Source: a virus
Direction: 5' to 3' (one strand)
IMG/VR virus record: IMGVR_UViG_3300026290_000001
Length of the DNA stretch: 64,000 nucleotides
In this document: positions 7,653-59,732 of the stretch, one piece after another
Numbering within the stretch: position 1 is the stretch's first letter
Layout of the letters: every line of letters starts with the position of its first letter
The notes under the pieces: model-generated
Database searches by the model: none
What the model saw: the letters and a program-made list of their open reading frames with translations, nothing else
What the model was told of the DNA's origin: nothing
Program-made: the position numbers and the translations under genes

Positions 7653-7670
7653 AAAAGGAGTGTGTTACAA

Positions 7671-8759
7671 ATGGCAATTAAAAAAGCTAACATTCAATGG
7701 AGTGCTAAACAGTTAACCAAATCAATTGAAAAAGGTACTATTACCTTTGACAATGCGGTGCAAAGAGGTTATGTATGGGATCAAGATAGAAAATCCTTAC
7801 TCATTCATAGTATGCTGGAGGGTTTTCCTATACCTGCATTTTTCGCAGCAAAAGATGAAAATGGCTATAGTATGCTTGATGGAAAACAAAGATCAGAAGC
7901 AATTTCCGGCTACATAAACGGCAATTATTTCTTAACTAATTTACCAGAGGTTATGGCGGAAATCACAGTACAAAATACAGAAAATAAGAAGGAAACAATA
8001 GAAGAAGAACTTGACATTAACGGCTCTTACTTTTCAGATTTGCCCGAAGATTTACAAGACCGTATTAGAGACTATTCCCTTACCGTTTACTATTTTGATG
8101 GAATAACCGAAGAAGAGGTAAACGAAATGTTTTTCCGGCTTAACAATGGCAAACCACTTACCGCTATTGAACTGACCAGAGTGAAGGCAAAATCTTTAGA
8201 AAAATTTCAAGAAATCGGTCAGCATCAATTATTTACCTCTACACTAACCGAAAAAGCAATTTCTAAGTATACCCATGAGGATTTGGTAATAAAATCCTGG
8301 GTGATGCTTAACACAGAAAATCCAGACTTAGGAACTAAGAACATTCGTTCTATTGTAGAGGTAAAAGATATTACAAACGAACAAGCGGATAATCTAAAAA
8401 CAGTTTATGACAAGGTTTTAGAAGTCTATACCATTTTGACCGCAGGAGACAAACAGGATAAAAAAACCGCAAAGCGTATTATAACCAGAACTCATTTCCT
8501 AAGTTTACTGCCTATCATTTCCAAACAGATTGACAGTAATTCCTGGAATACAGAACAATTTACAAGCTGGGTAAGACGTTTCTTTGGTAGTGATGAAGGT
8601 ACAACGATTAATGAAGAATACAACGAACTATCTAAAAGTGGAAGCAATAAGCCAGATAACATTAGAAGAAGGTTAGAGATTATCAAGATAGATTTTAGAC
8701 AATACCTGCTCAGTAGTAAAGATATTGAAGATAGTAGTCAAGATCAAGGTGTAGCGTAA
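7671..8759 (+). CDS. DUF262 / ParB-like NTPase-domain protein
   Basis: QRGYVWDQDRKSLLIHSMLEGFPIP and LDGKQRSEAI resemble the DUF262 (GmrSD N-domain, DndB-like) signature; no HNH/DUF1524 motif seen; track ORF 7662 trimmed to ATG. Confidence 0.55.
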   Translation: MAIKKANIQWSAKQLTKSIEKGTITFDNAVQRGYVWDQDRKSLLIHSMLEGFPIPAFFAAKDENGYSMLDGKQRSEAISGYINGNYFLTNLPEVMAEITVQNTENKKETIEEELDINGSYFSDLPEDLQDRIRDYSLTVYYFDGITEEEVNEMFFRLNNGKPLTAIELTRVKAKSLEKFQEIGQHQLFTSTLTEKAISKYTHEDLVIKSWVMLNTENPDLGTKNIRSIVEVKDITNEQADNLKTVYDKVLEVYTILTAGDKQDKKTAKRIITRTHFLSLLPIISKQIDSNSWNTEQFTSWVRRFFGSDEGTTINEEYNELSKSGSNKPDNIRRRLEIIKIDFRQYLLSSKDIEDSSQDQGVA

Positions 8760-18572: not shown

Positions 18573-19022
18573 ATGGGAGATTCAAATAGATTTATAATAT
18601 TTGCCGATTTTATTCAAAAACATTTTAATAATTGTGAAAAAATATTAGATGTGGCTGGCGGTCAAGGTGGATTAACATATGAATTAATCAAAAGAGGTTA
18701 TCAGGTAACAGTTATTGATCCAAAAATTAAAATTAAAAACAATAATGTAAGTAAAATAAAAAAGTATTATAATGATGAAATAGATATATCTGATTATGAT
18801 TTAATTGTTGGATTACATCCAGATGGAGCAACAGAATATATAGTTAAAAATGCTATTCAAAATAATAAGAGATTTGCCGTTATTCCTTGCTGTGTATTTC
18901 CGATAAATAAAAAATTAAAATTTAATTATCATCAATGGATTAATCATCTTCAACAATATAGTCCTAATATAAATAGATGGCAATTATATATGCAAGGGTG
19001 TAATATTGTATTATATAATTAA
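18573..19022 (+). CDS. class I SAM-dependent methyltransferase-like protein, substrate unknown
   Basis: ILDVAGGQGGLTYELIKRGYQVTVIDP matches the Rossmann motif I (hh(D/E)hGxGxG) with downstream acidic residue. Confidence 0.45.
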   Translation: MGDSNRFIIFADFIQKHFNNCEKILDVAGGQGGLTYELIKRGYQVTVIDPKIKIKNNNVSKIKKYYNDEIDISDYDLIVGLHPDGATEYIVKNAIQNNKRFAVIPCCVFPINKKLKFNYHQWINHLQQYSPNINRWQLYMQGCNIVLYN

Positions 19023-19060
19023 ATGATGATAAAAGAGAGATTTTATTATAAATAAAGGAA

Positions 19061-19312
19061 GTGATAAATGTGAAAAAGAAACAAAAAAATATCATAACAT
19101 TTGATTGCTATGATAGAAAAACCAATACCTGTAATGGTAGTTGTCAGGGATGTAGTGATTGTCCTATGGTAATGAAATATCAAATTCCTAGAAAGGAAAT
19201 GTGGAAGCATATGAAACAAGTGCATATTCAAAGTAAACAATGGCAAAGATTAGAGCAAAGTTTAAAAAGTGATTGGACATTTGTAAATAAATTAAAAAGT
19301 ATTTATAAATAA
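19061..19312 (+). CDS. small Cys-rich protein
   Basis: CNGSCQGCSDCP. Confidence 0.45.
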   Translation: MINVKKKQKNIITFDCYDRKTNTCNGSCQGCSDCPMVMKYQIPRKEMWKHMKQVHIQSKQWQRLEQSLKSDWTFVNKLKSIYK

Positions 19313-19327
19313 AAAACCAATTTAGTA

Positions 19328-19356
19328 TTGACATTATACTGTTATTTTAGTAATAT
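19328..19356 (+). promoter_or_regulatory. sigma-A-type promoter (TTGACA-17-TAATAT)
   Basis: Direct reading. Confidence 0.5.
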
Positions 19357-19513
19357 AAACATAGGCAAGACACTCATGACGTAGTGCAAGGTGGGGGGAG
19401 TGTAGCAGGAGTAGCGAGGGAAGTAGTAATTAAAGTTAATTCTTGAAAGGATAGTTTAATTACGAAAGGTGGGGCGAAACTGTATAATTTTATTAAAAGG
19501 AGATGTTTTAAAA

Positions 19514-19801
19514 ATGAAAATTATTATTAAAGAATCAGGAAAGCAACCATATGAAAAAGAAATTAAAAATGATTTAACAGTGTTGCAAGAAATTGTTGGT
19601 GGTTATATTGAAGTATTGCCTATAACTCAGGAAATATTAATGATATGTAATGAAGAAGGAAAATTAGAAGGATTGCCGTACAATTTTACTTTAGGTAATG
19701 ATTATATAGTTGGAACAGTATTTTTTATTGGCAATAATGAACCAGAATTCAGATCGTTAGATGATGCAGAAATTAAAGTGGTTATGAATTGGTTTAAATA
19801 A
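19514..19801 (+). CDS. hypothetical protein
   Basis: Track ORF 19469 trimmed to ATG after AAAGGAGA SD. Confidence 0.5.
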   Translation: MKIIIKESGKQPYEKEIKNDLTVLQEIVGGYIEVLPITQEILMICNEEGKLEGLPYNFTLGNDYIVGTVFFIGNNEPEFRSLDDAEIKVVMNWFK

Positions 19802-19838
19802 AACGATGTTTTGATTTGAACAAGGAGGGTTGAATAAA

Positions 19839-20039
19839 ATATTTAATAAAGAAGATATAATGAGAATTGATTATGTTGAAAAATTATCAATTTTAGAAAT
19901 AGAAAAAGTTGCTTTATATAATAAGAATAAAATAACCGAAGAAGAAGTTTTAGAAGTTATTAAGTTACATGGGATAGGTTATAATCCAAATGTTATTTTA
20001 ATTGACAAGGAACAATTTGAAAATGTTTTTGGAAGTTGA
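19839..20039 (+). CDS. hypothetical protein, probable ATA start
   Basis: Track TTG at 19830 abuts the SD (no spacer); in-frame ATA lies about 9 nt after AAGGAGGG. Confidence 0.35.
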   Translation: MFNKEDIMRIDYVEKLSILEIEKVALYNKNKITEEEVLEVIKLHGIGYNPNVILIDKEQFENVFGS

Positions 20040-20090
20040 TTTAAAATACTCATTTCATTAAAAATAAAAAACTGAAAGGAAGGAATAAAA

Positions 20091-20429
20091 ATGAATTCAA
20101 TGAGTGCTTTTATAATGGGAGAAATAAATAGAGGTAAAGAGGAAATGGTTTTTGATTGGGATAAAGCAGCTAAATTAATTAAAGATAGTGGTTTTAAAGA
20201 TGCTTCGGCAGGACTTAATGGTGATTGGGGATGTACTAGTGGTGAAATTTTCATTAATGGCAAACCTAAAATGAGTGACTATACTTATTTAGCAAGTACA
20301 TGGGCAACACCTCAAATTGAAATTGACGGTGAATATTATGATTGTTATAGAATGGAAAGTGAAACACCCAATTGGCATAGTAAAACAATGTGGCCTAATA
20401 GTGCATTAAAAATTATAAATAAAGATTAA
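20091..20429 (+). CDS. hypothetical protein
   Basis: Track ORF. Confidence 0.5.
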   Translation: MNSMSAFIMGEINRGKEEMVFDWDKAAKLIKDSGFKDASAGLNGDWGCTSGEIFINGKPKMSDYTYLASTWATPQIEIDGEYYDCYRMESETPNWHSKTMWPNSALKIINKD

Positions 20430-20657
20430 CACCAAATAATCTTTTTATAAAAAACAATTTAAGGAGGATTAATAATGTCTTGGTATAATGAACCTTGTAG
20501 TGTACATCAGTTAAATTATGCAAAAAGTTTGGCAGAGGAATTAGATATAGATTATAGGTACGAATGGATACAACAAAATTTTACTAAAGGAGAACTGTCT
20601 AATTTAATAAAAAAATTTAGAAAACAATTGGGATTAGATTAAAATCGGAGGTAGCAG

Positions 20658-21143
20658 ATGCGAAAATACATAATTACACTACTACTTATGATTTTGATAG
20701 TAGTAATAGGGATTAATCAGGCGAATTCAAATTATCAAAAGGACGTATTAAACACAGAAAATAAATATGTGGAAACAATAGACAAGCAAGAAGAAATTAC
20801 ATATAATGAAGTTAAAAATAAAACCAAACCTGAAACAAATTTTAATATTGAAGAAAATGATAATTATATAATCATGATAGCAACAGCCTATACAAAGTCT
20901 ATAGAAGAAGGAACGCATAAAGGAATTACTAGAAGTGGCACTCAGGTTTCTAGGGGTACTGTTGCGATTGATCCTAGAGTTATACCATTGGGTACTAAAA
21001 TCTATGTTGAAGGTTATGGTCATGCGGAATGTTTAGATACTGGTGGGGATATTAAGCATAATAGAATTGATTTGTATATGGATAGCAAAGAAGAGTGTTT
21101 TGAATTTGGTAGGAGAGAAGTTAAAGTTTGGATTATTGATTAA
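20658..21143 (+). CDS. secreted/membrane-anchored 3D-domain protein (MltA-like cell-wall-binding fold)
   Basis: N-terminal hydrophobic signal-like segment; TAYT ... GTVAIDPRVIPLGTKIYVEGYGHAECLDTGGDIKHNRIDLYMDS matches the 3D (Asp-Asp-Asp) domain pattern. Confidence 0.6.
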   Translation: MRKYIITLLLMILIVVIGINQANSNYQKDVLNTENKYVETIDKQEEITYNEVKNKTKPETNFNIEENDNYIIMIATAYTKSIEEGTHKGITRSGTQVSRGTVAIDPRVIPLGTKIYVEGYGHAECLDTGGDIKHNRIDLYMDSKEECFEFGRREVKVWIID

Positions 21144-21164
21144 TATCAAATGAGGTGATTAAAA

Positions 21165-21557
21165 ATAGCAAAGAAAAAAACTACATATTATTTTGCAAGT
21201 AAAGAAGATTTTAATGATAAAATTTTATATCCTAGAATCCCTTTAAGCAGAATGGAAACTGAAGATGATAAAATTGAAAGAATTTGTGTTTCTAAAAGTA
21301 TCAATGGATGTTTAAGTGCTACACAATGTTGGGATAAAGAAGACATAGTATATATTTATAAATGCGAAAGCAATAAAGTAATACAACCAACATTAAAACA
21401 AGTGCCTGATCAATGTTTTACTGGAGAAGAATGGATTTTAGAACCAGTAAGAATGCAATTATTTATGAAGGTAAAAATTGAAACAAGTGATGATTGTAAA
21501 TTATTATCAAGGAATATGAGAAATGTAGTGTATAAGTTTGATATGTTAAAAATATAA
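21165..21557 (+). CDS. hypothetical protein, probable ATA start
   Basis: Track ATG at 21252 has no SD; frame is open back to an ATA 7 nt after GAGGTG. Confidence 0.4.
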   Translation: MAKKKTTYYFASKEDFNDKILYPRIPLSRMETEDDKIERICVSKSINGCLSATQCWDKEDIVYIYKCESNKVIQPTLKQVPDQCFTGEEWILEPVRMQLFMKVKIETSDDCKLLSRNMRNVVYKFDMLKI

Positions 21558-21603
21558 TAATTAAATTGCACTTTTATTATGAGTTGAAAGGAGAAATATA
21601 AAA

Positions 21604-22002
21604 ATGAATTGGTGGAAAATAAGAAATTGGTTTAATAATTATTTAAGACCATATGCAATCATGGGCGGAATATCAAATTTAATTAAATGGTTTCCTTTAA
21701 TCTGGAAAGATCGTGATTTTGATCATGGATATCTATATGATATTTTATATTTTAAATTAGGTGAAATGCAAAAATTTTTTGAATCGGGTAATACATATTC
21801 TGAAGGAGCAGACAAATATGCAGAACAAATTAAAAAATGTAAAGAATTGCTTTATCGTATAATGAACGAATCAATTCAAGATGAAAATTGGGATGGCGAT
21901 AATTTTACCAGACCATTGAATGAAATTTATGAATTAGAAAAAGAAGAAAAGAAACTATTTTGGAATATGATGTGTGACAATATTGATGGTTGGTGGGATT
22001 AA
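21604..22002 (+). CDS. hypothetical protein
   Basis: Track ORF with AAGGAGAAA SD. Confidence 0.5.
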   Translation: MNWWKIRNWFNNYLRPYAIMGGISNLIKWFPLIWKDRDFDHGYLYDILYFKLGEMQKFFESGNTYSEGADKYAEQIKKCKELLYRIMNESIQDENWDGDNFTRPLNEIYELEKEEKKLFWNMMCDNIDGWWD

Positions 22003-22023
22003 GTTAAAGCAAGGAGAATTTAG

Positions 22024-23253
22024 ATGATTGAGTTAAAAGGTAAATACACAATAGCAAAAGTATTCACCGATAATATAGATCAAGAAACAATATCTCAAAT
22101 AATTAATCTATGTAATCAAGACTTTACTGAAAACAGTAAAATACGTATAATGAGCGATTGTCATGCTGGTAAGGGATGTGTAATTGGTTTTACTGCTGAT
22201 TTAGGTGATAAAGTAATTCCCAATCTTATAGGTGTGGATATTGGATGTGGTTGTCTTACCGCTGAATTAGGTAAAATCAATCCAGACTTACAAAAACTAA
22301 ATGATGTTATTCATAAATACATTCCTAGTGGTAGAGATATTCATGAAGGTAGGATTTTAAAATTCCCTGAATTACAGGAGTTATATTGTTATAGAGAACT
22401 AAAAGAAACTAAACGAATTGAGAAAAGTATTGGCACACTAGGTGGAGGAAATCACTTTATAGAGTTAAACCAGGATGATGAAGATAATATTTATCTAGTG
22501 ATTCATTCAGGAAGTAGAAATTTAGGCAAACAAGTAGCAGACTATTATCAAAACATTGCTATTGAATTAAGAAGTGGTAGAGAAGAATATTATCTTGAAA
22601 GAGATAAAATTATTAAAGAGTATAAAGAGCAGGGTAGAAAAAAAGAAATTCAATCAGCATTAAAGCAATTAGACAATAAGTATCAACATTCTCAACCAGA
22701 TTATCCTAAAGAATTATGTTTTTTAGAAGGAATATGGAGAGAAAGATATTTACATGATATGGAGATTTGTCAGGAATACGCTAATATAAATAGAATGGCA
22801 ATGGCTGATATAATCCTTAAAAAATGGTTGAATTTAAATATTATATCATTGATACCAAATTTCTTTCAAACTATCCATAATTACATTAACTTTAAAGATA
22901 ATATCATTCGTAAAGGCTCTATTTCTGCCTATAAAGGTGAAAAGGTATTAATCCCTATTAATATGCGTGATGGATCATTATTATGTGTTGGTAAAGGTAA
23001 TCCAGATTGGAATTATTCTGCACCACATGGGGCTGGTAGATTAATGAGTAGGGGTAAGGCGAAACAAAATATTTCAATGGAAGAATATCAAAAATCTATG
23101 GAAGGTATATTTACCACTTCAGTTAATTTATCAACTTTAGATGAAGCACCTATGGCGTATAAATCTATGGATGAGATAGTAAATAATATTGGTGATACGG
23201 TTGATATTTTAAAAGTAATTAAACCTATTTATAATTTTAAAGCAGGAGAATAA
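22024..23253 (+). CDS. rtcB: RtcB-family RNA ligase
   Basis: SDCHAGKG, GGGNHFIEL and NYSAPHGAGR motifs correspond to RtcB metal-binding / His-GMP regions. Confidence 0.7.
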   Translation: MIELKGKYTIAKVFTDNIDQETISQIINLCNQDFTENSKIRIMSDCHAGKGCVIGFTADLGDKVIPNLIGVDIGCGCLTAELGKINPDLQKLNDVIHKYIPSGRDIHEGRILKFPELQELYCYRELKETKRIEKSIGTLGGGNHFIELNQDDEDNIYLVIHSGSRNLGKQVADYYQNIAIELRSGREEYYLERDKIIKEYKEQGRKKEIQSALKQLDNKYQHSQPDYPKELCFLEGIWRERYLHDMEICQEYANINRMAMADIILKKWLNLNIISLIPNFFQTIHNYINFKDNIIRKGSISAYKGEKVLIPINMRDGSLLCVGKGNPDWNYSAPHGAGRLMSRGKAKQNISMEEYQKSMEGIFTTSVNLSTLDEAPMAYKSMDEIVNNIGDTVDILKVIKPIYNFKAGE

Positions 23254-23332
23254 AACCCAATATATAGGGGTTTATGTTGTGATAAAATCTAACTTTCATT
23301 TTAAATTTATAAAGAAAAGGAAGTGATTAAAA

Positions 23333-23629
23333 ATGATAGAAATTAATAAATTGGAATCACAAATACAAAGGTATGACACTATGTTTGGAACTAGATCAAG
23401 AATATTTCCTCCCGATATAATTTTAGTATCAACATCTTTAGATAGTTGGCAAATATTAATTACCAACAAACAAAATAAACCTATTTATTTATTACATAAA
23501 AATAAATTTGGTAGAACAAATAAATATCATATTCAGGGAAGAAAAACATGTTTATATCATGCATACGATACAATACATAAACATAAAAATCCACTAATAA
23601 ATATCTACAAAAATAAAAGTTATAAATAA
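23333..23629 (+). CDS. hypothetical protein
   Basis: Track ORF. Confidence 0.45.
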   Translation: MIEINKLESQIQRYDTMFGTRSRIFPPDIILVSTSLDSWQILITNKQNKPIYLLHKNKFGRTNKYHIQGRKTCLYHAYDTIHKHKNPLINIYKNKSYK

Positions 23630-23762
23630 TAAGAAAAATATTCTAAATTACCGTCTATAAAAATAGGACAACTCATTTGAAGAAATTATGATGATACCAT
23701 GTGTTATTACAGTTGAGAATTTATCAGTATAAATTCGGCTTTATTGAAATGGAGGAATTAAA

Positions 23763-23945
23763 ATGAAAGTAGAAGAAATTATTAACTACATTGATTCAGC
23801 AATTAATAACAGACCTCACAGTGATGCTTTTTGGATTGATGAACAAGGAAACGATCATCACGCAGATGTTGGGTATGGAGTTGAATGGTGGAAAGTCATA
23901 AAGGAAGAATTAATTAGAGTGTTTATAGATAACGAATTAAAATAG
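23763..23945 (+). CDS. hypothetical protein
   Basis: Track ORF with GGAGGAA SD. Confidence 0.45.
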   Translation: MKVEEIINYIDSAINNRPHSDAFWIDEQGNDHHADVGYGVEWWKVIKEELIRVFIDNELK

Positions 23946-23977
23946 ACATTTGATTATTTAAATATGGAGGTAAAAGT

Positions 23978-24247
23978 ATGATTACAAATACTGGATTAAA
24001 ATTATTTATTAAAAACTACTTTGAGTGTAAAGCCGGAGATAGTATTACCTTTGAAATTAATAATTCAGAAGGTAAAATCGATTGTCTTAAAAACGATCTT
24101 TTTAGAGGATCAGTATATAATACTATTAAATATTTTGATTCTTGGAAAACAGATATTGTTAGCAAAACAGGATTTACCTGCTCTGATGATGCTTTTGATT
24201 GGATTAAAGATCAATCTAAGAAATTTGGATTTGAAATAGAAATTTAA
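23978..24247 (+). CDS. hypothetical protein
   Basis: Track ORF with GGAGGT SD. Confidence 0.45.
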   Translation: MITNTGLKLFIKNYFECKAGDSITFEINNSEGKIDCLKNDLFRGSVYNTIKYFDSWKTDIVSKTGFTCSDDAFDWIKDQSKKFGFEIEI

Positions 24248-24609
24248 TATTTACGACATTTGATTATAAGGAGGCTTTTATTATAAATACACTTCATGAA
24301 ATATTTGATAGAGATAATTACTAATCTATTGAAAATTAAATAGATTTTAGATTTATTATATTAATATAAAATGGAGGTTTTGTTGTGAGTGATTATTTAA
24401 TTTATATATTAATAAGTATGTCTTTTATATCAGTAATTTGTTTAATGGTTTGTATAGGAGAAGAAAGGAAAAATAAAATTAATATTATAAATAATAAGAA
24501 GAAAGAAATTGAAAATATTTTTGAACGAATTGAAAAGGTGTTAGAAGAAAAATAAACATTATAAAAGAATCATTTTATTATTATTAAAATATAAAAGGAG
24601 GTAAATAAT

Positions 24610-24906
24610 ATGATATTAAAAGGTAAAGAAGAAGGTATTGTAAAAATTATTATTGAATGTGATTGCGGTTGCGAAGCATTGCAACTATCTAAATTTAATT
24701 GGAATGATGGAGATGTTGATTATTATCTTGAAATACTAGTCCCTGCATTTAGTGCGGAGCAAACTACATCTTGGGATAGATTTAAAGTAAGAACAAAATT
24801 TATATGGTTAATTCTGCGTGGAAAATATCACTGGCTAACATCTTTAATTTTAAAGAAAGAACAATTAGTGCAACTAAGAGATGCTTTGAATGAAATGGTT
24901 GAATAA
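24610..24906 (+). CDS. hypothetical protein
   Basis: Track ORF with AAGGAGGT SD. Confidence 0.45.
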   Translation: MILKGKEEGIVKIIIECDCGCEALQLSKFNWNDGDVDYYLEILVPAFSAEQTTSWDRFKVRTKFIWLILRGKYHWLTSLILKKEQLVQLRDALNEMVE

Positions 24907-25144
24907 AATATTGAATTGGTAACAATATTAAAGAAAGGAGAGTAATATATATGTGGGATAAACTATCCAGAGAAGAAAAACTAAGAATTGTTAATACCAG
25001 ATTAGAAGAAGTAGATATTCAAATTAAAGAACTCTGTGATATCAGAGAAATTTTAGAAGAAGAACAACTAAAATTAAGGTTGCAATAAATACAAAAAATA
25101 AATATAATATAAATGTCACCATAATGAAAAGGAGGTAAAAATAT

Positions 25145-25534
25145 TTGAGTGCAGACAATGGAATTTACATACTCAAAACCAAAGAAAATCAATATCGAGT
25201 TATTTATGCTTCAGCAATAGAAAATCTATACTGGAATCCTCTTGATCCTAATAGTTATGACAAACTAATTCCCACTAGAATAGTTGAATTATACGGCAAA
25301 TCAAAATATACATATGATAAAAACTTAGCTAGGGATATTGCTTTTAACATGGCAAGAAATACTTATCTGGAATATGGAATTAGTGAAATTGTAGTTGATA
25401 AAACATGGAGACAGATTATTAAAGAAGCAAAAGAACTTGCTCCACTTGAAATTGAAGCAATTGAATGTAGTAGTACTCATGATGGTAGATGGGATAGTAA
25501 TTTAATTAAACTAAAAGAAATTATGAATATGTAA
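25145..25534 (+). CDS. hypothetical protein
   Basis: Track ORF, TTG start after AAGGAGGT SD. Confidence 0.45.
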   Translation: MSADNGIYILKTKENQYRVIYASAIENLYWNPLDPNSYDKLIPTRIVELYGKSKYTYDKNLARDIAFNMARNTYLEYGISEIVVDKTWRQIIKEAKELAPLEIEAIECSSTHDGRWDSNLIKLKEIMNM

Positions 25535-25545
25535 GGGGAGAGATT

Positions 25546-25794
25546 ATGACAAAAATATTGGCACATTATAATTATGATGATATTATTATTGGCGCAAATA
25601 ACTTAGGTCAGATACTTGTATGGTTTAGAAACAGATATAGAAAATTAAATAAATCTCAAAAAGATAGTTTGAGATATTTATATCTTGATAATACATATAT
25701 GGGTAGTGTTATTGAACAAATTGAAAATGATATTAAGGAAGAAAAGAGAAGGAAGATAAAGGAGAAATATAATATGAACGAGGAGGATATATAA
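25546..25794 (+). CDS. hypothetical protein
   Basis: Track ORF. Confidence 0.45.
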   Translation: MTKILAHYNYDDIIIGANNLGQILVWFRNRYRKLNKSQKDSLRYLYLDNTYMGSVIEQIENDIKEEKRRKIKEKYNMNEEDI

Positions 25795-25979
25795 TGATTT
25801 GTCCATATGATAATTGTCTAGAATGTTCTGAATATGATAAATGTTTTATTAAAGATAAAGAAGAACATATTGAAGTCGAATTTACTCAAGAAGAATTAGA
25901 ATTGATATATGATTGTTTATCTAGCACAAAAAATCGTTATGATAATTTAATTTTCAAGATTGAAAGATTAATATATTAA
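25794..25979 (+). CDS. small Cys-containing hypothetical protein
   Basis: Track ORF, start overlaps upstream stop. Confidence 0.45.
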   Translation: MICPYDNCLECSEYDKCFIKDKEEHIEVEFTQEELELIYDCLSSTKNRYDNLIFKIERLIY

Positions 25980-25999
25980 AATAAAAGGAGGAAATACAT

Positions 26000-26158
26000 A
26001 TGAGTAAATCACTAAGATCAATGATTAAAGAAGGAAGAGCAAAAGCAATTGAACGTAGATTTAAAAGTCAGACTAAAAGAAATGGTTATTGGGCAGCCGT
26101 TGATGCAAAAAAGAAGATTGAAGAGAAGAGTCATGCCGTTTTACATAATCAGAATTGA
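26000..26158 (+). CDS. small basic hypothetical protein (52 aa), not in track
   Basis: ATG after AAAGGAGGAAA SD; preferred over overlapping track ORF 26049-26246, which lacks an SD. Confidence 0.35.
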   Translation: MSKSLRSMIKEGRAKAIERRFKSQTKRNGYWAAVDAKKKIEEKSHAVLHNQN

Positions 26159-26285
26159 GGATGATTTAATCCTCCCAGGGGAATTTAAAGATTATATGAG
26201 TGCAGTAGAAAATTGTGATATAAATGATGTAATGTATTTGGATTAAAAGATTAAACCAAAGAACGTTTTTGTAATGATTTTTTAT

Positions 26286-26314
26286 TTGACAAACTACTAT
26301 TAAAATAGTAATAT
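26286..26314 (+). promoter_or_regulatory. sigma-A-type promoter (TTGACA-17-TAATAT)
   Basis: Direct reading. Confidence 0.5.
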
Positions 26315-26354
26315 AAATAGGAGAAACAAAACATAAAACAAAGGAGGTATATAA

Positions 26355-27437
26355 ATGAGTAGTTTGATAGTGGAAGTGTGCAGAGTAGACGAAATAGAAA
26401 AACATCCTAATGCAGATAAACTTTCTATAGTCACAGTTAAAGGATGGAATTGCATTGTAGGGTTAGACCAGTATAAACAAGGAGATTTAGTAGTATTTGT
26501 TCCACCAGATAGCATTATTCCTGAAAATATCATTGAAAAATATAATCTTACATATTTAAAGAATGGTGGTCGAGTAGGAACTACAAAATTACGTGGATTT
26601 ATTTCTCAAGGTCTTATACTTGATTTGCCCGAAGGTAAATTTAAAGTTGGAGATGATGTATCTAAAGTTTTAGGTATAACCAAATGGGAACCACCCGTAT
26701 CGCAAAATCATCAGCAAGCCAATGTCATTTCTAAGAAAAAATTAAATCCATATTTTGATCGATATACAGAAATAGAGAATATTAAAAACTATAAGAATGT
26801 ATTTGAACCTGGGGATAAAATAGTTATTACTGAAAAAATTCATGGTTCAAATTGGAGAGCAGGGAATTTACCTATAGTAATTGATAAATCACAACCTTTA
26901 ATATATAGATTTAGAGCGTGGTTTAGTAAATTATTAGGAAATTCTCACCAATTTGTATACGGCAGTCATAATGTTCAACTACATGGCAAAAATAAAAACA
27001 ATAATTTTTACGGTGAAGACCTATGGGGTAAGATTTGCAATAAATATAATATGATAAATATAATTCCTAAAGATTATATTATATATGGTGAAGTATATGG
27101 TATTGGAGTACAAGATTTAACTTATGGGTTAAAAGATGTTGATCTAGTTGTATTTGATATTAAATATAATGGAAAATATTTGCCTTGGGACGAAGTAGTA
27201 AAGTTTTGTAGACAATATAGTTTGCCAACAGTTCCTTTATTGTATATCGGTGATTTTGAAGAAGGGATAATTGAAAAATATACAAGTGGTAAATCAACAA
27301 TTTGTCCCAATCAAATTCGTGAAGGTTGTGTAGTAAAAGACCTTTGGGAAGAGCAGGATAAGCGAATTGGAAGAAAGATTTTGAAGAGTATTAATCCAGA
27401 TTATTTACTGAGAAAGAATGGAACAGAATATAGGTAA
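26355..27437 (+). CDS. RNA ligase (Rnl2-like nucleotidyltransferase) with N-terminal tRNA-binding-like OB domain
   Basis: N-terminus VCRVDEIEKHPNADKLSIVTVKGWNCIVG resembles the Myf / tRNA_bind signature (HPNADKL); EKIHGSN matches the T4 Rnl2-type KxHGxN adenylylation motif. Confidence 0.55.
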   Translation: MSSLIVEVCRVDEIEKHPNADKLSIVTVKGWNCIVGLDQYKQGDLVVFVPPDSIIPENIIEKYNLTYLKNGGRVGTTKLRGFISQGLILDLPEGKFKVGDDVSKVLGITKWEPPVSQNHQQANVISKKKLNPYFDRYTEIENIKNYKNVFEPGDKIVITEKIHGSNWRAGNLPIVIDKSQPLIYRFRAWFSKLLGNSHQFVYGSHNVQLHGKNKNNNFYGEDLWGKICNKYNMINIIPKDYIIYGEVYGIGVQDLTYGLKDVDLVVFDIKYNGKYLPWDEVVKFCRQYSLPTVPLLYIGDFEEGIIEKYTSGKSTICPNQIREGCVVKDLWEEQDKRIGRKILKSINPDYLLRKNGTEYR

Positions 27438-27556
27438 ATCATTATAAAACTTACTTTTTATCATGATTTTAGGCTTTAGAAATGCCTAGAAAATGGGATT
27501 TGTTTTCTGGGATTTTTATTAAATATTAAATAAAAATAAAAAAGGAGGTAATTAAT

Positions 27557-27772
27557 ATTTACGAATGTAAACAATGTGGTAATAAAAAATATTTTAATGA
27601 AATAAATTACATAAAGACATTTGTAGTTTTAGATGAAGAAACAGGTGAACCACAATATACACAAGATAAATTTATAGAGTGCATAGAAGTGTTTTGTGGA
27701 GTTTGTAAAGCAAGTAGTGAAGATAAAAATATATTATCTCAAGGGGAAATATTAAATTTAAAGGAGTATTAA
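27557..27772 (+). CDS. small zinc-ribbon protein without canonical start, not in track
   Basis: Open frame with CKQCG ... CGVCK; only ATT codons lie after the AAGGAGGT SD. Confidence 0.3.
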   Translation: MYECKQCGNKKYFNEINYIKTFVVLDEETGEPQYTQDKFIECIEVFCGVCKASSEDKNILSQGEILNLKEY

Positions 27773-27776
27773 TAAA

Positions 27777-28349
27777 TTGAGTAGTACAAATAGAAGTGAT
27801 GCACGCAATTATCACATTTCAGATTATTATGTGACTCCAGTAAATAAAATTATTGATTTTATAGATGCTTTTGTAGAAATAGAAGAAGATTTTGAAGGTA
27901 AAATGCTTGATCCTTGTGCAGGAGGAGATTCTAATCATCCAATGAGTTATCCAGAGGCATTTAAGTTATGTGGGTATTTAAATATGGATACTATGGATAT
28001 AAGAGAAGATTCTTTGGCAGATATTAAAACAAATTATCTTACATATGACTGTAAAAATAAATATAATATAATAGTTACCAATCCACCTTTTGGTTTAGCA
28101 AGAGAAATAATAGAAAAAGCATTAGATGATGTTAAGGATAATGGTTTTGTAGTTATGTTATTAAGATTAAATTTTTTTGGTGGTAAGCTTAGAGAAGATT
28201 TATGGGAAAAACAAATGCCTAAATATGCTTTTGTACATAATAGAAGAATGAGTTTTACAGATGATGGAAAAACAGATTCAATTGAATATATGCATTGTGT
28301 ATGGCAGAAGGGATATTACCCTGAATTTACTATGTTAAAAGTGATATAA
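27777..28349 (+). CDS. small putative N6-adenine methyltransferase
   Basis: YYVTP, LDPCAGGDS (motif I-like) and IVTNPPFG (motif IV); TTG start. Confidence 0.5.
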   Translation: MSSTNRSDARNYHISDYYVTPVNKIIDFIDAFVEIEEDFEGKMLDPCAGGDSNHPMSYPEAFKLCGYLNMDTMDIREDSLADIKTNYLTYDCKNKYNIIVTNPPFGLAREIIEKALDDVKDNGFVVMLLRLNFFGGKLREDLWEKQMPKYAFVHNRRMSFTDDGKTDSIEYMHCVWQKGYYPEFTMLKVI

Positions 28350-28680
28350 TTTAAATATGAATATTATAATAAAGGAGCATAATATATGAATGAAATAAAT
28401 AAAATAATTAATTATTTAATTACTATTGGATACGTTATTAAAAATGGAAGTGCATATTTACCTAGCGATAAAGAATTTGAAATTCCTTATGATGTTAGAA
28501 TGACACATTTTTTACACACGAATAAAATTTGTAATTATGAAGTACATGAAATGTAAATAAAAAACATAACCAAAATTCCATTTTATCATGATTTTCAGGA
28601 TGAAGAATCCCAATATACAGGCATCTATTTTTTGATTAATTGACAAAAATATAAAATAAATATAGGAGGAATAATACATA

Positions 28681-28725
28681 TTGTTAGAATTAAATAATTT
28701 TTACATAGGTGAAAATGCGAAATAG
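28681..28725 (+). pseudogene. 15-codon remnant of a methyltransferase 5' end
   Basis: TTG LLELNNFYIGE then stop; matches the first ~30 nt of the genes at 35506 and 40520; lies at the junction with G+C-richer DNA. Confidence 0.45.
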
Positions 28726-28733
28726 ACAGACAC

Positions 28734-29534
28734 ATGGAGAGGAGGAATGACCTGGTGGCGTTACCTTTGTTGATTGCCAAAAAAGAACAGAAGTTAAAAC
28801 AAAACTTATCAATTAAACTTTCAAATGAGAGTTGTTTTGATTTTCTCAAGAGATTGGACAGTAATTCAATATCGCTCATTCTGATTGACCCTCCTTACGG
28901 AGTTTCGAGAGATACAAATTTCGCTTCTGGTGAGGAAACGGGTAAAGATACTGATAGATTTAGAGTGTCTATGGATTTCGGTGATTGGGATTATGATTTT
29001 AATGATTTAGCAGGTGTAATTAAAGAATGTTACAGAGTTCTTAAAAAAGGTGGAACGATGATTTGTTTCTATGACCTCTGGAAAATCACAACTCTTAAAC
29101 AGTATTTTGATGATGCTAAATTTAAGCAACTTAGATACATAGAATGGATTAAGACAAATCCTGTTCCACTTAATAGTAAAACTAATTATCTCACAAATTC
29201 AAGAGAGATTGCCCTTGTTGGTGTAAAAGGTGGGAAACCAACTTTCCATTCAGAATATGATAATGGTATTTATAGTTATCCAATTTGTCACGATAAAGGT
29301 AGATTCCATCCTACACAGAAGCCTTTAGCTCTTATCGAAGATTTAATTGTTAAACATTCTGATGAGGGAGACCTTATTTGTGATTGTTTCTCAGGTTCAG
29401 GCACTACTGCTGTTGCATCTTATAATACCAATCGTAATTTTGTAGGATGTGAATTATCTAAAGAATATTACGACAAATCACTTCTTCGTTTTGAAGAACG
29501 AGGTTTCGATGGAAGGAGTGGTACTGATGAGTAG
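28734..29534 (+). CDS. DNA methyltransferase, beta-class (N6A or N4C)
   Basis: LILIDPPYG (motif IV) N-terminal and FHPTQKP ... DCFSGSGTT (motif I) C-terminal; G+C visibly higher than flanks. Confidence 0.7.
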   Translation: MERRNDLVALPLLIAKKEQKLKQNLSIKLSNESCFDFLKRLDSNSISLILIDPPYGVSRDTNFASGEETGKDTDRFRVSMDFGDWDYDFNDLAGVIKECYRVLKKGGTMICFYDLWKITTLKQYFDDAKFKQLRYIEWIKTNPVPLNSKTNYLTNSREIALVGVKGGKPTFHSEYDNGIYSYPICHDKGRFHPTQKPLALIEDLIVKHSDEGDLICDCFSGSGTTAVASYNTNRNFVGCELSKEYYDKSLLRFEERGFDGRSGTDE

Positions 29535-43665: not shown

Positions 43666-44370
43666 TTGAAACATATTTTAAGTTTTAGTGGCGGCAAAGA
43701 TTCAACCGCAATGTTACTCATAATGTTAGAGAGAGAATATCCAATAGATGAAATTATATTTTGCGATACTGGTAAAGAATTTCCTGCTTTATATAGACAT
43801 ATTGATAAAGTTGAAGAATACATAAACCAACCTATAACTAGGCTTAAAGGAGAAAAAACTTTTGATTATTGGATGTTCGAACATGAAAAAACCAAAGGTA
43901 AACATTTAGGTAAAAAGGGTTATGGTTGGGCAGACACCAGAGCAAGATGGTGTACAGCATATTTTAAGCGTGAAATTATGAATAAATACATAAAAGAAAA
44001 ATATAATAATGAATATAAAGAGTATGTAGGTATTGCTTATGATGAGTTTAAAAGATATGAGAAAACACAAAATGGTCATAAAAAATATCCTTTAATTGAA
44101 TGGAAAATAACTGAAGGTATGGCTCTAAAATATTGCTATGATAAAGGATTTGATTGGGAAGGAGTATACACACATTTTGAACGGGTATCTTGCTGGTGCT
44201 GCCCTTTAAAAAATCAGAGAGAATTATATATGCTTTATTCTTTCTATCCTGAATTATGGGCAGAACTCAAAGATATGGATAGTAGAGCATGGAACCAGTT
44301 TAAAAGAGATTACAGTGTTCAGGATTTAGAAGATAAATTTAGGGGATGGCAAGACATAATAAAAATATAA
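43666..44370 (+). CDS. PAPS-reductase-family PP-loop ATPase-like protein
   Basis: ILSFSGGKDSTAML PP-loop near N-terminus and C-terminal CWCCP cysteine cluster. Confidence 0.6.
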   Translation: MKHILSFSGGKDSTAMLLIMLEREYPIDEIIFCDTGKEFPALYRHIDKVEEYINQPITRLKGEKTFDYWMFEHEKTKGKHLGKKGYGWADTRARWCTAYFKREIMNKYIKEKYNNEYKEYVGIAYDEFKRYEKTQNGHKKYPLIEWKITEGMALKYCYDKGFDWEGVYTHFERVSCWCCPLKNQRELYMLYSFYPELWAELKDMDSRAWNQFKRDYSVQDLEDKFRGWQDIIKI

Positions 44371-45972: not shown

Positions 45973-47394
45973 ATAATTAAATTAAATAAGTTTGCATTAG
46001 TACAATTAACTCCAAAAGATATGCGAAGCCAAGATAGTATAAATTTAGGATTAGAAATTATATCTGAAATAGTTAAAAAACAAGGTTGGCAATTAGATAC
46101 ATATAAATTCGGAGATAAAATTCAAGATGTTAATTCATATGATATTATAGGGTTTAGTTTATTCTATTTTACACAAATGTTAAATTTAGTTCCATTCCTA
46201 AAGAGTAATAATATTAAACCATTAAGTAGTAAAAGAAACAATCAACCACTATTATTAGCTGGCGGTCAAGGTATTCAAAATCCTAAACCAATTAGTAAAT
46301 TTATTGATGTATTTTGTATGGGTGAGGGTGAGGGGGTTTTGGAATATATCTTAGAAAATTATAAAAATAAAAATATTTTATCAAACCATAAGTCTTTGTA
46401 TATACCAAATATAAATGATAATTTTATATTCAACTCAATAAAAGATGTTGATTCTAAACCTATAATTTATGGTAAAAATAGCATGATAGAATTAACGAGG
46501 GGATGTAAAAATAGATGTAAGTTTTGTCAGTATGGATGGACAAATGGTAAATATCGAGAAAAAAACATCGAACTAGTAAAACAACAAATATTAGAGGTTA
46601 AAGATAAAGGCATTAAAAATATTAACTTGTTAAGTTGTAATTTGGGTGGTTATTCTAAGATAAATGAAGTTCTTGATTTTTGTATAGAAGAAAATATTAG
46701 ATTAATGAATACCGATATGAGAATTGACGAATATAGTGAAGAAATAGCTATAAAATTAGACCTACTAAAAGTGAGAACTCTAAAAGTTGGAGTAGAAAGC
46801 TTTTCTGATCAAACACGAATTGGTATTAATAAGAATATTTCAAAAATACAATTAGATACTTTTATTGACAGAGCTTTGAAGCATAATATATCAAATTTAC
46901 ATTTTTATTTAATATACGGACTTCCAAACGAAGAAAACTATAATGAATGGTTTAATTATATGGAATACATAAAAAATAGAATAAAATCTGTTGATAGAAA
47001 TATAAGAATTGAATTTAGTATTACTAATTTTGAACCAGCAATATATACACCCTTTGAAAAAAGTCCTTTAATTAATTTCCAAGACAAGCATAAATTTATG
47101 AGAGAATATTTAATAAAACAAGAAGAATTGGGTTATATAAAACAACCCGCACAAACAAAAGATTATAAAAATAGTCATGGAAGATTAGGCAGAAAAGAAC
47201 GAAGTTATAATATTGGAATGTGGTTACTACATGGGGACGAAACTGTAGGGGATGTGTTATATGAATTAAACATTAAAGGAATAGGTAGGAGTATAAATGA
47301 AAAGATTTATAATCAAATTTATAAAATATGCCAATCAAAAACTGATGTTTATCAAATAAGAAACATTCAAGATTTAAATGAAAATATATGGTGA
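45973..47394 (+). CDS. radical SAM protein with N-terminal B12-binding-like domain, probable ATA start
   Basis: TRGCKNRCKFCQYGW (CxxxCxxC); N-terminal FALVQLTP ... LGLEIISEIVKKQGW fits the cobalamin-binding-domain pattern; track ATG 46021 has no SD, ATA lies 7 nt after GGAGGTT. Confidence 0.55.
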   Translation: MIKLNKFALVQLTPKDMRSQDSINLGLEIISEIVKKQGWQLDTYKFGDKIQDVNSYDIIGFSLFYFTQMLNLVPFLKSNNIKPLSSKRNNQPLLLAGGQGIQNPKPISKFIDVFCMGEGEGVLEYILENYKNKNILSNHKSLYIPNINDNFIFNSIKDVDSKPIIYGKNSMIELTRGCKNRCKFCQYGWTNGKYREKNIELVKQQILEVKDKGIKNINLLSCNLGGYSKINEVLDFCIEENIRLMNTDMRIDEYSEEIAIKLDLLKVRTLKVGVESFSDQTRIGINKNISKIQLDTFIDRALKHNISNLHFYLIYGLPNEENYNEWFNYMEYIKNRIKSVDRNIRIEFSITNFEPAIYTPFEKSPLINFQDKHKFMREYLIKQEELGYIKQPAQTKDYKNSHGRLGRKERSYNIGMWLLHGDETVGDVLYELNIKGIGRSINEKIYNQIYKICQSKTDVYQIRNIQDLNENIW

Positions 47395-47525: not shown

Positions 47526-49397
47526 ATGAGTGAAATAGAAAATCTCAAACAACAATTAGATTACCATGATGATTTGTATTACAATCAAGACGATCCTGAA
47601 TTATCTGATGTGGAATATGATGCTTTAAAACAAGAATATCTTAATTCAGTTAATCAACAAGAATACAACTATATACCTGGGCAAGCACAATTTAAAAAAT
47701 TCACACACACATTCCCTATTAAATCATTGGGGAAAATAAATACTATTGAACAAGCAAGAAAAGAAATTGAAAGGTTATATCCAGTAGTTATTGAACCTAA
47801 ATATGATGGATTAACCTTAGTGTTATATGGTGAAGGGAAAGTAGTAACTAGAGGTAGTGGTCAAATCGGAGAAGATGTTACTGCAAATGCTTCTAGATTT
47901 ATGCGTACTTATAATCCATATGGTTTACCTATTCGTGGCGAAGCAATTATGCCTATATCAGTGTTCCATGAAATTAACAAACAAAGGGATGTAGAAGGTA
48001 AGGAATTATTTAAAAATCCAAGAAATGCAATAGCAGGTATTCTTAGAAATAAAGATAATAGTAATATCCCTAAAGGGTTAAGATTTATTGCTTATGAAAT
48101 CGTAGGATCAGCAGAATCCCATATTCAACAATTATTAGAACTTAAAAAATACTATGATATACCTGAAGCAGATACTATTTGGAATTATAGTGAAATTGAT
48201 GATGCAGTAAAATTCATAGAAAACTTTGATCGTTCTAAATTAGATTATGAAATTGATGGATTAGTTATTAAATCTAATAAGACAAATGCATTAGATATTT
48301 TTGGTGAAACTGAACATCATCCGAACCATAGTGTTGCCTACAAGTTTCCTTCTCAGGGAGAATGGACTGTATTAAAATCTATAACTTGGCAAACTGGTCG
48401 CACGGGCAGAATTACCCCTGTGGCAGAATTGGAACCAGTAGATATTATGGGAAGTACAATCGAACGTGCTACATTGCATAATATAGGGTATATTAGTGGT
48501 TTAGATTTACAGCTATATGATAAGGTGTTTTTAGTGAAAAGTAATGATATTATTCCCGCTGTGATTAAATGTGAGCATACTAAAAATAGTAAACCTATTG
48601 AAATTATAAACAAGTGTCCTTCATGTGGAAGTGAATTAAAAATTATCAATGATCAATTATTCTGTATTAATGATGATTGTTTGGCAAAATTATTATATAG
48701 AACTTCTCATATGGTTAGTCGAGATGCCCTTAATATAGATGGTCTTAGTGAGCAAACCATTTTAAAAATGATTGAAGCAGGATATATTAATAAACCTTGG
48801 GATATATTTGATGTTACTGAAACAGAAATATTAAAATTAGATGGTTTTGCAAAGAAATCTGCCAAAAAAATATATGAAAATATTCAAAATGCAAGAAATT
48901 GTGATTTTGATAGAGCAATTTACGCTTGTGGAATTGAACTGATAGGCAGAAAGGTTAGTAAAGATATTGCAAAAGAATTTGAGACTATTGATAATTTGTT
49001 ATATTGTTTAAGACGTGATGATGCTAGAAGTATATTAGGTATGATTGATGGTATTGGTAATACCACTATAGATAGTTTATTGAATAACGTTAATATTTTA
49101 GAAAATATGGTGGATTATTTAAGTATTAGTAGTGTTGAAAAGAAAGAAACAACTTTTAAATCTCTTGAAAATATTACATTTGTAGTTACCGGAAATGTAG
49201 AAACATTTAAAAACCGTAAAGAGTTAGAAGAATTGATCACTTCTCTTGGTGGTAAGTTAAGTGGATCAGTTTCAAGTAAAACTAATTATTTAATCAACAA
49301 CGATATTACCTCCAATTCTGGTAAGAATAAAAAGGCAAACGAATTAGGGGTAGAAATTATTAGTGAAATACGATTTAATGAAATGATAGGTAGGTAA
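47526..49397 (+). CDS. ligA: NAD-dependent DNA ligase
   Basis: N-terminal LDYHDDLYYNQDDPELSDVEYDALKQEY, adenylylation motif EPKYDGL, Cys4 zinc finger CPSCGSEL...CINDDC, C-terminal BRCT-like VVTGNVETF. Confidence 0.85.
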   Translation: MSEIENLKQQLDYHDDLYYNQDDPELSDVEYDALKQEYLNSVNQQEYNYIPGQAQFKKFTHTFPIKSLGKINTIEQARKEIERLYPVVIEPKYDGLTLVLYGEGKVVTRGSGQIGEDVTANASRFMRTYNPYGLPIRGEAIMPISVFHEINKQRDVEGKELFKNPRNAIAGILRNKDNSNIPKGLRFIAYEIVGSAESHIQQLLELKKYYDIPEADTIWNYSEIDDAVKFIENFDRSKLDYEIDGLVIKSNKTNALDIFGETEHHPNHSVAYKFPSQGEWTVLKSITWQTGRTGRITPVAELEPVDIMGSTIERATLHNIGYISGLDLQLYDKVFLVKSNDIIPAVIKCEHTKNSKPIEIINKCPSCGSELKIINDQLFCINDDCLAKLLYRTSHMVSRDALNIDGLSEQTILKMIEAGYINKPWDIFDVTETEILKLDGFAKKSAKKIYENIQNARNCDFDRAIYACGIELIGRKVSKDIAKEFETIDNLLYCLRRDDARSILGMIDGIGNTTIDSLLNNVNILENMVDYLSISSVEKKETTFKSLENITFVVTGNVETFKNRKELEELITSLGGKLSGSVSSKTNYLINNDITSNSGKNKKANELGVEIISEIRFNEMIGR

Positions 49398-58892: not shown

Positions 58893-59732
58893 ATGAGTTA
58901 TATAATAGATTTATACACCCAAGGCAATTCTGCGTTAAAAATTTCTAAACAAGAAAATATTCCTGTTCATCAAATATACAAAATATTGGAAAAAAACAAT
59001 ATTCCAAGAAGAAGCAATCGAATAAATAATAAAAAATATAGTTGCAATGAAGATTATTTTGAGAATATAAATACGTCAGAAAAAGCATATTGGTTAGGTT
59101 TTTTATACGCTGATGGCTTTGTTTCAAAAAATGAAAAATTTTATAATAGAGGATCGTTAGGAATATCTTTGGCAATAGAAGACAAAGAACATTTAGAAAC
59201 ATTAAATAAAGATTTAAATTCAAATTATCCTATAAACATATATAGTGTAGTTAATGGTTATAAAATTGGTATTCAATATGCAAGAATAATTATTAAAAGT
59301 GAAAAAATATTTAATGATTTGATTGATAAGGGTTTAAGTGAAAGAAAATCAGAGATTAAAAAACGTCCAAAAAAAATACCAGAAGAATTAATTAAATATT
59401 TTATACTTGGATATTTTGATGGGAATGGTTGTATTTCAATACATAGAAGAAAAAATAATGATAAGTTGGATTTTAAATTTAGAATTACAAGTACAGATGA
59501 TGTATTATATTTTATTACAGATTATTTATATAACAATAAATTAATATACAATAAAAGAAAATTAGACAAACGACACATATACGATATTGTCTCTAATTTA
59601 GAATACGGAGGAAATAGGCAAGTATATAAAATTATGCACCATCTGTATCAAAATACACCCAGATTTTTAAAAAGAAAACATGAAAGATATTTAATATTAA
59701 AAAATCAACTTATGAAAGAAGGGGAAATATGA
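58893..59732 (+). CDS. LAGLIDADG homing endonuclease
   Basis: Two LAGLIDADG-type motifs (YWLGFLYADGF and FILGYFDGNGC) about 100 aa apart; stop overlaps next start (ATGA). Confidence 0.6.
   Translation: MSYIIDLYTQGNSALKISKQENIPVHQIYKILEKNNIPRRSNRINNKKYSCNEDYFENINTSEKAYWLGFLYADGFVSKNEKFYNRGSLGISLAIEDKEHLETLNKDLNSNYPINIYSVVNGYKIGIQYARIIIKSEKIFNDLIDKGLSERKSEIKKRPKKIPEELIKYFILGYFDGNGCISIHRRKNNDKLDFKFRITSTDDVLYFITDYLYNNKLIYNKRKLDKRHIYDIVSNLEYGGNRQVYKIMHHLYQNTPRFLKRKHERYLILKNQLMKEGEI

Follow-up and report, generated by a model that had tools for sequence, protein, structure and literature searches.

The resealing of cut RNA by phage-encoded enzymes is known as a counter-defence concept from phage T4, whose polynucleotide kinase/phosphatase (Pnkp) and RNA ligase Rnl1 are set against the anticodon nuclease PrrC. 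In large phages RtcB and ATP-dependent RNA ligases occur in any combination, probably specialised for different RNase effectors (PMC7824862); BcepSaruman and BcepSauron, phages of Burkholderia, for example, encode RtcB, Rnl1 and Rnl2, with roles that are predicted to be non-redundant against such effectors (PMC7824862). Another family of ATP-dependent RNA ligases, Rnl5, includes DraRnl of Deinococcus radiodurans (DR_B0094) and NgrRnl of Naegleria gruberi (PDB 5cot), which consist of an N-terminal OB domain and a C-terminal nucleotidyltransferase domain, without a C-terminal appendage. Characterised Rnl5 enzymes act on nicked duplexes with 3'-OH and 5'-PO4 ends, the 3'-OH strand being RNA (PMC7261155, PMC4408790), and the physiological role of the family has been called 'uncharted' (PMC5397189). 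Here we describe a stretch of 64,000 nucleotides from the IMG/VR virus record IMGVR_UViG_3300026290_000001 (the window), which encodes an RtcB-family RNA ligase and an ATP-dependent RNA ligase that on the basis of its sequence is a member of the Rnl5 family (DraRnl/NgrRnl-type). We propose, with moderate confidence, that these are two independent, sealing-only RNA ligases encoded by accessory phage genes, and that their most likely task is to reverse RNA damage caused by ribonucleases of the host or of rival elements. The two genes, and the domains of the second product, are as follows.

22024-23253, plus strand: RtcB-family RNA ligase of 409 residues (Pfam PF01139, E=3e-58; phrog_1075 'tRNA splicing ligase', E=7e-133, full length)
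26355-27437, plus strand: Rnl5-type ATP-dependent RNA ligase of 360 residues (PF09414, PF21189, TIGR02306)
26355..26702, plus strand: OB domain at the N-terminus of the ligase (residues 1-116), an N-module of the Rnl5 type with Trbp111/PheT-B2 lineage
26754..27419, plus strand: nucleotidyltransferase domain of the ligase, residues 134-355 (PF09414 at 155-345, E=1e-21)

The product of the gene at 26355 contains the motifs HPNADKL (residues 17-23) and KIHGSN (residues 161-166). It scores 148.3 bits against TIGR02306, the NCBIfam DraRnl equivalog built on DR_B0094, which is slightly under the cut-off of 151.15 bits but extends over residues 11-353 and model positions 8-341 of 341, whereas the Rnl2 equivalog TIGR02307 yields 34.8 bits against a cut-off of 197.15 bits. 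The closest solved structure by sequence is that of NgrRnl (E=4e-19 with the sequence alone, 2.5e-23 with a profile), the structural exemplar of the Rnl5 family. An AlphaFold model of the ligase, built from 33 homologs (predicted local distance difference test score 82.5), was compared with the PDB using Foldseek. The best matches of this predicted structure are 13 NgrRnl entries, which are aligned over the full length with E-values of about 1e-20 (8e-21 is given for NgrRnl), and NgrRnl also ranks first when the N-terminal domain is compared by itself. With the catalytic domain only, the model matches T4 Rnl2 (4e-8), archaeal Rnl3-type ligases (about 2e-6) and REL1 (9e-6), while DNA ligases (about 7e-3) fall far below the RNA ligases; the catalytic domain is thus far better matched by RNA ligases than by DNA ligases.

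The phage ligase ends 37 residues past motif IV and has no C-terminal appendage; DraRnl likewise ends about 30 residues past this motif (PMC1807946). The Rnl2-defining C-terminal domain would not fit into so short a tail, and the enzyme thus has the Rnl5 architecture: an N-terminal OB domain homologous to those of DraRnl and NgrRnl, and as the last domain a nucleotidyltransferase with motifs I, III, IIIa, IV and V. An earlier note on this DNA had labelled the enzyme as Rnl2-type, an identity that is ruled out by the absent C-terminal domain, the very low TIGR02307 score and the confinement of the Rnl2 match in Foldseek to the catalytic domain. T4 Rnl2 (PDB 2hvq, 1s68) belongs to the same Pfam family, PF09414, is the second-best match of the predicted fold, presumably has a motif I resembling the KIHG type, and is probably comparable in sealing nicks, but it possesses a C-terminal domain where the phage ligase has an N-terminal OB domain instead. 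NgrRnl shares about 25% identity overall with the phage ligase, and differs from it in several positions: it has an Asp at the motif I site where the phage ligase and DraRnl have a His, its R149 is replaced by Asn142, and its R4 has no obvious counterpart. Compared with DraRnl and NgrRnl, the present enzyme is phage-encoded and has kept the HPNADKL motif in its OB domain.

Motif I of the ligase is formed by T159-E-K161-I-H163-G164, with the same spacing as the DraRnl residues T163/K165/H167/G168, which are essential (PMC1807946). The other motifs could be assigned to E246 (motif III), F267-D268 (IIIa), E323-G324 (IV) and K341/K344 (V), and in a profile alignment K161, E246 and E323 are equivalent to K170, E227 and E312 of NgrRnl. 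Conservation was counted over 130 diverse representatives of the family, in which K161, E246, E323 and G324 are invariant (130/130) and K344 is found in all but one (129/130). Because the catalytic motif residues are both intact and conserved, this ligase is very probably active.

The N-terminal domain shows similarity to several OB-fold families. PF21189 ('PHA02142 OB-fold domain') covers residues 6-90 with a score above its cut-off (E=6e-16), the tRNA_bind family PF01588 aligns with residues 6-93 at E=3.8e-5 and 24.1 bits, just under its cut-off of 27 bits, and the bacterial PheT model TIGR00472 matches residues 6-89. The OB domain with an HPNADKL signature that had been recognised at the N-terminus of the ligase is therefore real, as is its match to tRNA-binding OB folds. 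It is not a special fusion, however, since it is the standard module of the family: HPNAD[RK]L is the majority state among the 130 diverse members (H in 114, N in 111, A in 120, D in 119 and L in 120), and hence is not peculiar to this phage. K-x-H-G is likewise the majority state (His in 128 of 130). The likeness of DraRnl's N-terminal domain to the B2 OB domain of the PheRS beta subunit has already been noted (PMC1807946), so that the structural observation is correct but not new. In comparison with the OB domains of Trbp111, CsaA, MetRS-C, PheRS-beta B2 and EMAP II (PF01588), the phage domain is closer to the ligase-specific PF21189 and is fused to a ligase, and its counterpart in NgrRnl positions ATP.

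In the Michaelis complex of NgrRnl with ATP and Mn2+, the OB residues R4, D53 and K121 grip the gamma-phosphate of ATP and its metal (PMC7261155). D52 and K110 of the phage ligase align with D53 and K121, and are conserved in 122 and 125 of the 130 representatives, respectively. R80 (127/130) is probably the counterpart of the essential R79 of DraRnl, judging from its position and not from an alignment. Deletion of the N-terminal module abolishes adenylylation and overall nick sealing, but a nick that has been pre-adenylylated can still be closed by phosphodiester formation (PMC1807946, PMC4408790).

These data bear directly on a second proposal of the earlier note, namely that tRNA is indicated as the substrate by the ligase having a tRNA-recognition module of its own. 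This argument fails because the OB domain is the defining N-terminal module of Rnl5, which positions ATP and serves adenylylation and nick sealing. RNA repair as such is plausible, and conventional for a large phage (PMC7824862), and this part of the proposed countermeasure can be retained; tRNA is a possible specific target, since tRNA stems are double-stranded and the OB domain has a suggestive lineage, but it cannot be derived from the OB domain alone. The fuller version, in which the OB domain genuinely recognises tRNA and the ligase specifically repairs tRNAs cut by anticodon nucleases in the manner of T4, with RtcB as a healing-free partner or as an alternative, appears unlikely to us. 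In NgrRnl and DraRnl the OB domain serves ATP binding, adenylylation and nick sealing, and tRNA binding has not been reported (PMC7261155, PMC1807946), while the known Rnl5 substrates are nicked duplexes. Moreover, in contrast to the T4 system, no Rnl1 and no Rnl1-type tRNA-specificity domain is present, no Pnkp was found in the roughly 91 kb that were searched (the window, 10 kb upstream and about 17 kb downstream, of a genome of about 135 kb), the window contains no tRNAs, and the pairing with RtcB is not conserved in relatives. A narrower variant, which we regard as distinctly unlikely, would be that the OB domain of the phage and bacterial Rnl5 branch with HPNAD[KR]L docks tRNA, the substrates being stem-nicked tRNAs with 3'-OH and 5'-PO4 ends, and that together with RtcB it makes up a healing-free kit against tRNA-targeting defence. 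Such ends are of the kind expected from metal-dependent nucleases.

The ligase belongs to a very large family. A word-indexed search returned 2,174 homologs, PF21189 and PF09414 being present together in all of the matches listed (120/120), and many homologs with 57-68% identity carry the Joint Genome Institute name 'RNA ligase (TIGR02306 family)'. In an exhaustive search 9,150 representatives were retrieved (50% clustering, E<=1e-3). The family occurs in 520 GenBank phage records, mainly of Mycobacterium, Pseudomonas, Microbacterium, Gordonia, Sinorhizobium, Caulobacter and Brevundimonas phages, and among the matches listed the annotated GenBank phage homologs are mostly labelled 'RNA ligase'. 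Some homologs (P0241 and P0252) of about 710-724 residues contain an intein, consisting of Intein_splicing and LAGLIDADG_2 homing endonuclease domains, directly after ligase motif I. That inteins have inserted at motif I, and that the family is so very widely distributed, indicates an enzyme that is functional and under selection. The 26355 product is a typical member of this known family, and should be annotated as an Rnl5-type (DraRnl/NgrRnl-like) nick-sealing RNA ligase, rather than as Rnl2 or as a new tRNA-binding fusion.

Both genes are open reading frames (ORFs) with exactly the coordinates that had been noted. The product of the first could be assigned to the RtcB family, as had been predicted. 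It scores 198.5 bits against PF01139 (cut-off 27), and matches the RtcB structures of P. horikoshii, T. thermophilus and human. Residues D45/H47, D72/C75, N143/H144 and H161 align with D65/H67, D95/C98, N202/H203 and H234 of P. horikoshii RtcB (1uc2), H335 aligns with its GMP-accepting nucleophile H404, and an HNY motif is located at residue 285. The protein thus matches the family in its fold, in the Cys, His and Asp metal ligands and in the histidine that accepts GMP. It shares the full-length Pfam match and these residues with RtcB of E. coli and P. horikoshii (PDB 1uc2/4dwq) and human RTCB, and its length is typical of bacterial RtcB; it differs in being phage-encoded and in falling short of the cut-offs that NCBIfam sets for its specific RtcB sub-models. 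Membership of the RtcB2/PrfH-type or the intein-type sub-family was rejected, as these scores are far under the cut-offs. A conserved partner gene upstream of RtcB was also considered, as a 213-residue ORF is found there in three loci (L004, L006 and L007), but it was rejected because the L004 protein is unrelated to those of L006 and L007 and there is no counterpart in the window. Genes for RtcA, RtcR and archease were not found in the window by a Pfam scan of all plus-strand ORFs of at least 40 residues (E<=1e-3).

From these identities a division of labour can be proposed. With GTP and Mn2+, RtcB would form a His335-GMP intermediate and join RNA ends with a 3'-phosphate or 2',3'-cyclic phosphate to those with a 5'-OH. 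The Rnl5-type ligase would use ATP to adenylylate K161, aided by the OB residues D52, K110 and R80, after which the AMP would be passed from K161 to a 5'-PO4 end and an RNA 3'-OH end would attack, in characterised homologs at duplex nicks. Jointly, the two enzymes could reseal RNA breaks of both end chemistries without a kinase or a phosphatase, and their most likely use would be to undo breaks in tRNA, rRNA or mRNA made by host or rival-element ribonucleases during infection. As in BcepSaruman and BcepSauron, this is a large phage with RtcB and an ATP-dependent RNA ligase; compared with the sets of those jumbo phages, the partner here is of the Rnl5 type, the DNA searched revealed neither a polynucleotide kinase nor an HAD/2H phosphoesterase, RlaP or CCA-adding enzyme, and the 64-kb window has no tRNA genes. 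RtcB would bypass end healing, which sets this locus apart from the T4 pair of Pnkp and Rnl1.

Several observations weigh against this proposal. The characterised Rnl5 enzymes seal duplex nicks and not anticodon-loop breaks, and Mn2+-dependent sealing, with an N-terminal domain needed for adenylylation, is known for DraRnl and NgrRnl only (PMC1807946, PMC4408790). In the 91 kb defined above no RNA-end healing or remodelling enzyme, Pnkp included, was found, and in the 64-kb window ARAGORN detected no tRNA or tmRNA genes. The two ligase genes lie on the same strand, but are separated by a gap of 3.1 kb with about ten unrelated small ORFs. Neither RtcB nor Pnkp is encoded within 5-10 kb of the ligase in six big-phage loci with 57-67% ligase identity, and, conversely, no ligase is found within 5-10 kb of RtcB in four loci with 74-80% RtcB identity, two of which are the same phage. 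Finally, the only known phenotype of an Rnl5 enzyme concerns DNA, in that deletion of DraRnl slows the reassembly of the genome after irradiation (PMC5397189).

The last observation leads to the main rival explanation, in which the Rnl5-type ligase acts on phage DNA and seals ribonucleotide-terminated nicks (ribo-patches, RNA:DNA hybrids) during replication or repair, RtcB being unrelated to it. Some gene neighbourhoods fit such a role: one relative (L002) has the gene order DNA polymerase III (Pol III) alpha, RecD2, ribonucleotide reductase, dUTPase, ligase, in another (L099) the ligase has RecJ upstream and NrdD downstream, and in a third (L100) a deoxynucleoside monophosphate (dNMP) kinase gene lies immediately downstream. 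The phage, however, has a full DNA ligase of its own.

47526-49397: NAD+ DNA ligase (Pfam scan of the window ORFs)

This gene is conserved with replisome genes: in 24 related IMG/VR loci it is found in synteny with Pol III alpha. RtcB is encoded in none of these loci (0/24), and the Rnl5-type ligase is represented by a distant partial match in L024 only; as both are absent where DNA ligase and Pol III alpha are kept, they are accessory genes and not part of the replication core. Furthermore, the Rnl5-type ligase is sporadic among related phages, lies here in a block made up of small accessory ORFs and DNA methylases, at a distance from the replisome genes, and in cultured phages can lie close to polynucleotide kinase and tRNA genes: in Mycobacterium phage Wilder a ligase of the same family is about 4 kb from a polynucleotide kinase and adjoins a tRNA array. 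In CcrColossus a same-family ligase is near a nucleotidyltransferase and tRNAs. With these points on both sides, we consider a DNA-side role rather unlikely.

The neighbourhood of the two genes was also analysed for signs of a functional link, with two features of interest.

23333..26246, plus strand: about ten small ORFs of 45-129 residues, between the two ligase genes, with no Pfam, PHROG or credible Rfam match
27485..27521, plus strand: terminator-like hairpin with a 12-bp stem and a T-run, 48 nt past the ligase stop codon (consensus match only)

This hairpin is the only terminator-like site on the plus strand in 19000-29000, and may end a transcription unit that runs through the ligase gene. 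A promoter scan was at chance level (75 matches versus 75.8 in shuffled sequence). Conserved synteny of RtcB and ligase was rejected, as the pairing is absent in all relatives sampled; in these relatives the ligase is surrounded by small ORFs, by DNA methylases, and by genes of replication or nucleotide metabolism.

The phage RtcB is about 70% identical to the chromosomal RtcB of Clostridium, Inediibacterium, Desulfosporosinus and Abyssisolibacter, its nearest cellular homologs, one of which (P0179) has a housekeeping gene context. This favours a different explanation for the locus, in which RtcB is a recently captured host housekeeping gene and the ligase a mobile phage gene partly spread by homing elements, the two being unrelated cargo that are neighbours by chance and share no pathway. 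It would agree with the occurrence of each gene alone in relatives, with the LAGLIDADG-containing inteins in some ligase homologs and with the homing endonuclease genes that are frequent nearby. Nevertheless, we regard it as very improbable, since both active sites are fully intact, the genes are on the same strand with the sole plus-strand terminator-like site of 10 kb just past the ligase, and large phages repeatedly combine RtcB with ATP-dependent RNA ligases (PMC7824862). We therefore retain a role of both ligases in RNA repair as the preferred explanation. Both enzymes are of already-described kinds, and beyond the correct annotation the locus is of little consequence; it touches on the question of the biological substrate of the widespread Rnl5 family, which is not specific to this locus. 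Phages with Rnl5 and RtcB but without an end-healing enzyme would be convenient systems for testing the repair of RNA cut by host defence.

In three of the six relatives (L002:11129-11470, L101:10965-11092 and L102:3044-3373), a small DUF488-N3a protein is encoded in the neighbourhood of the ligase. In L002 it lies directly downstream of the ligase and is 62% identical to the copy in the present phage, which is encoded at L008:18695-19030, about 4.4 kb past the 3' end of the window and about 42 kb from the ligase. No literature on the function of DUF488-N3a was found.

With respect to end healing, the absence of a polynucleotide kinase/phosphatase from the window had already been remarked upon; it holds in the Pfam scan described above, which gave no end-healing domain of the polynucleotide kinase, HAD, HD, 2H or calcineurin type, and it extends to the 10 kb upstream and the roughly 17 kb downstream. 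A superficially Pnkp-like pair of genes is present in this downstream region.

L050:14666-15754, about 5 kb past the window end: abutting genes for a dNMP kinase and an NT5C-type HAD nucleotidase, adjoining NrdD, NrdG and dUTPase

The kinase matches the T4 gp1 dNMP kinase (1dek, phrog_139) and the HAD protein matches a 5'(3')-deoxyribonucleotidase (3bwv). A split Pnkp was therefore rejected in favour of nucleotide metabolism, as neither protein matches Pnkp. At the Rfam gathering thresholds no structured RNA was matched in the window, and at E<=1 the region of 19-29 kb gave just three matches, all at chance level.

The window is 100% identical to stretches of the IMG/VR contigs UViG_3300009647_000134 and UViG_3300009671_000358, and no near-identical phage was found in GenBank by megablast. 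The first gene of the window is present in three independent assemblies of 134.8-138.1 kb, which gives the genome size of about 135 kb. The window has a GC content of 28% and represents a plus-strand early or replication block, with genes for a beta clamp, the NAD+ DNA ligase, a DnaB-like helicase, a primase-like protein, RecJ and Pol III alpha. The 10 kb upstream encode an integrase, DNA methylases, RadC and a CoiA-like nuclease, while the 17 kb downstream encode, in order, a RecD2-like helicase, Mor-like and SprT-like proteins, DUF488-N3a, NrdD, NrdG, dUTPase, the dNMP kinase and the NT5C-type HAD protein. Beyond the latter gene the strand switches, and genes for a holin, an endolysin and an integrase follow.

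L050:16645-17361, minus strand: endolysin with Amidase_2 and S-layer-homology (SLH) domains

The low GC content, the Clostridia-like RtcB, the NrdD and NrdG genes and the SLH-domain endolysin together suggest that the host is probably an anaerobic, S-layered, low-GC Firmicute of the Clostridia.

Some further observations concern the rest of the genome. Two tyrosine integrase/recombinase genes (L046:5641-6519 and L050:18865-19869, both on the minus strand) hint at a temperate or plasmid-prophage lifestyle, the large replication module notwithstanding. The RecD2-like helicase gene, encoding 1,069 residues, starts at about 63073 and extends past the window end, and is complete in L008:13345-16554. 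Between 27777 and 50951 the window contains a dense array of about 15 predicted DNA methyltransferases (11 of the N6_N4 type, and one each of the D12-class, Dam, MT-A70 and phrog_799 kinds), in which a 3'-phosphoadenosine-5'-phosphosulfate (PAPS)-reductase-like gene (43666-44370) and a B12-type radical S-adenosylmethionine gene (46021-47394) are embedded; further methylase genes lie upstream of the window on the opposite strand (L046, L047). This array suggests broad anti-restriction methylation or DNA hypermodification. A protein of 365 residues encoded at 7662-8759 has as its sole Pfam match the GmrSD_N (DUF262, ParB-like) domain of type IV restriction enzymes, and a similar gene is found 2.5 kb from the ligase in one relative (L003). 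Finally, a free-standing LAGLIDADG homing-endonuclease-like ORF (58893-59732) is located between RecJ and Pol III alpha, and its stop codon overlaps the start of the polymerase gene.

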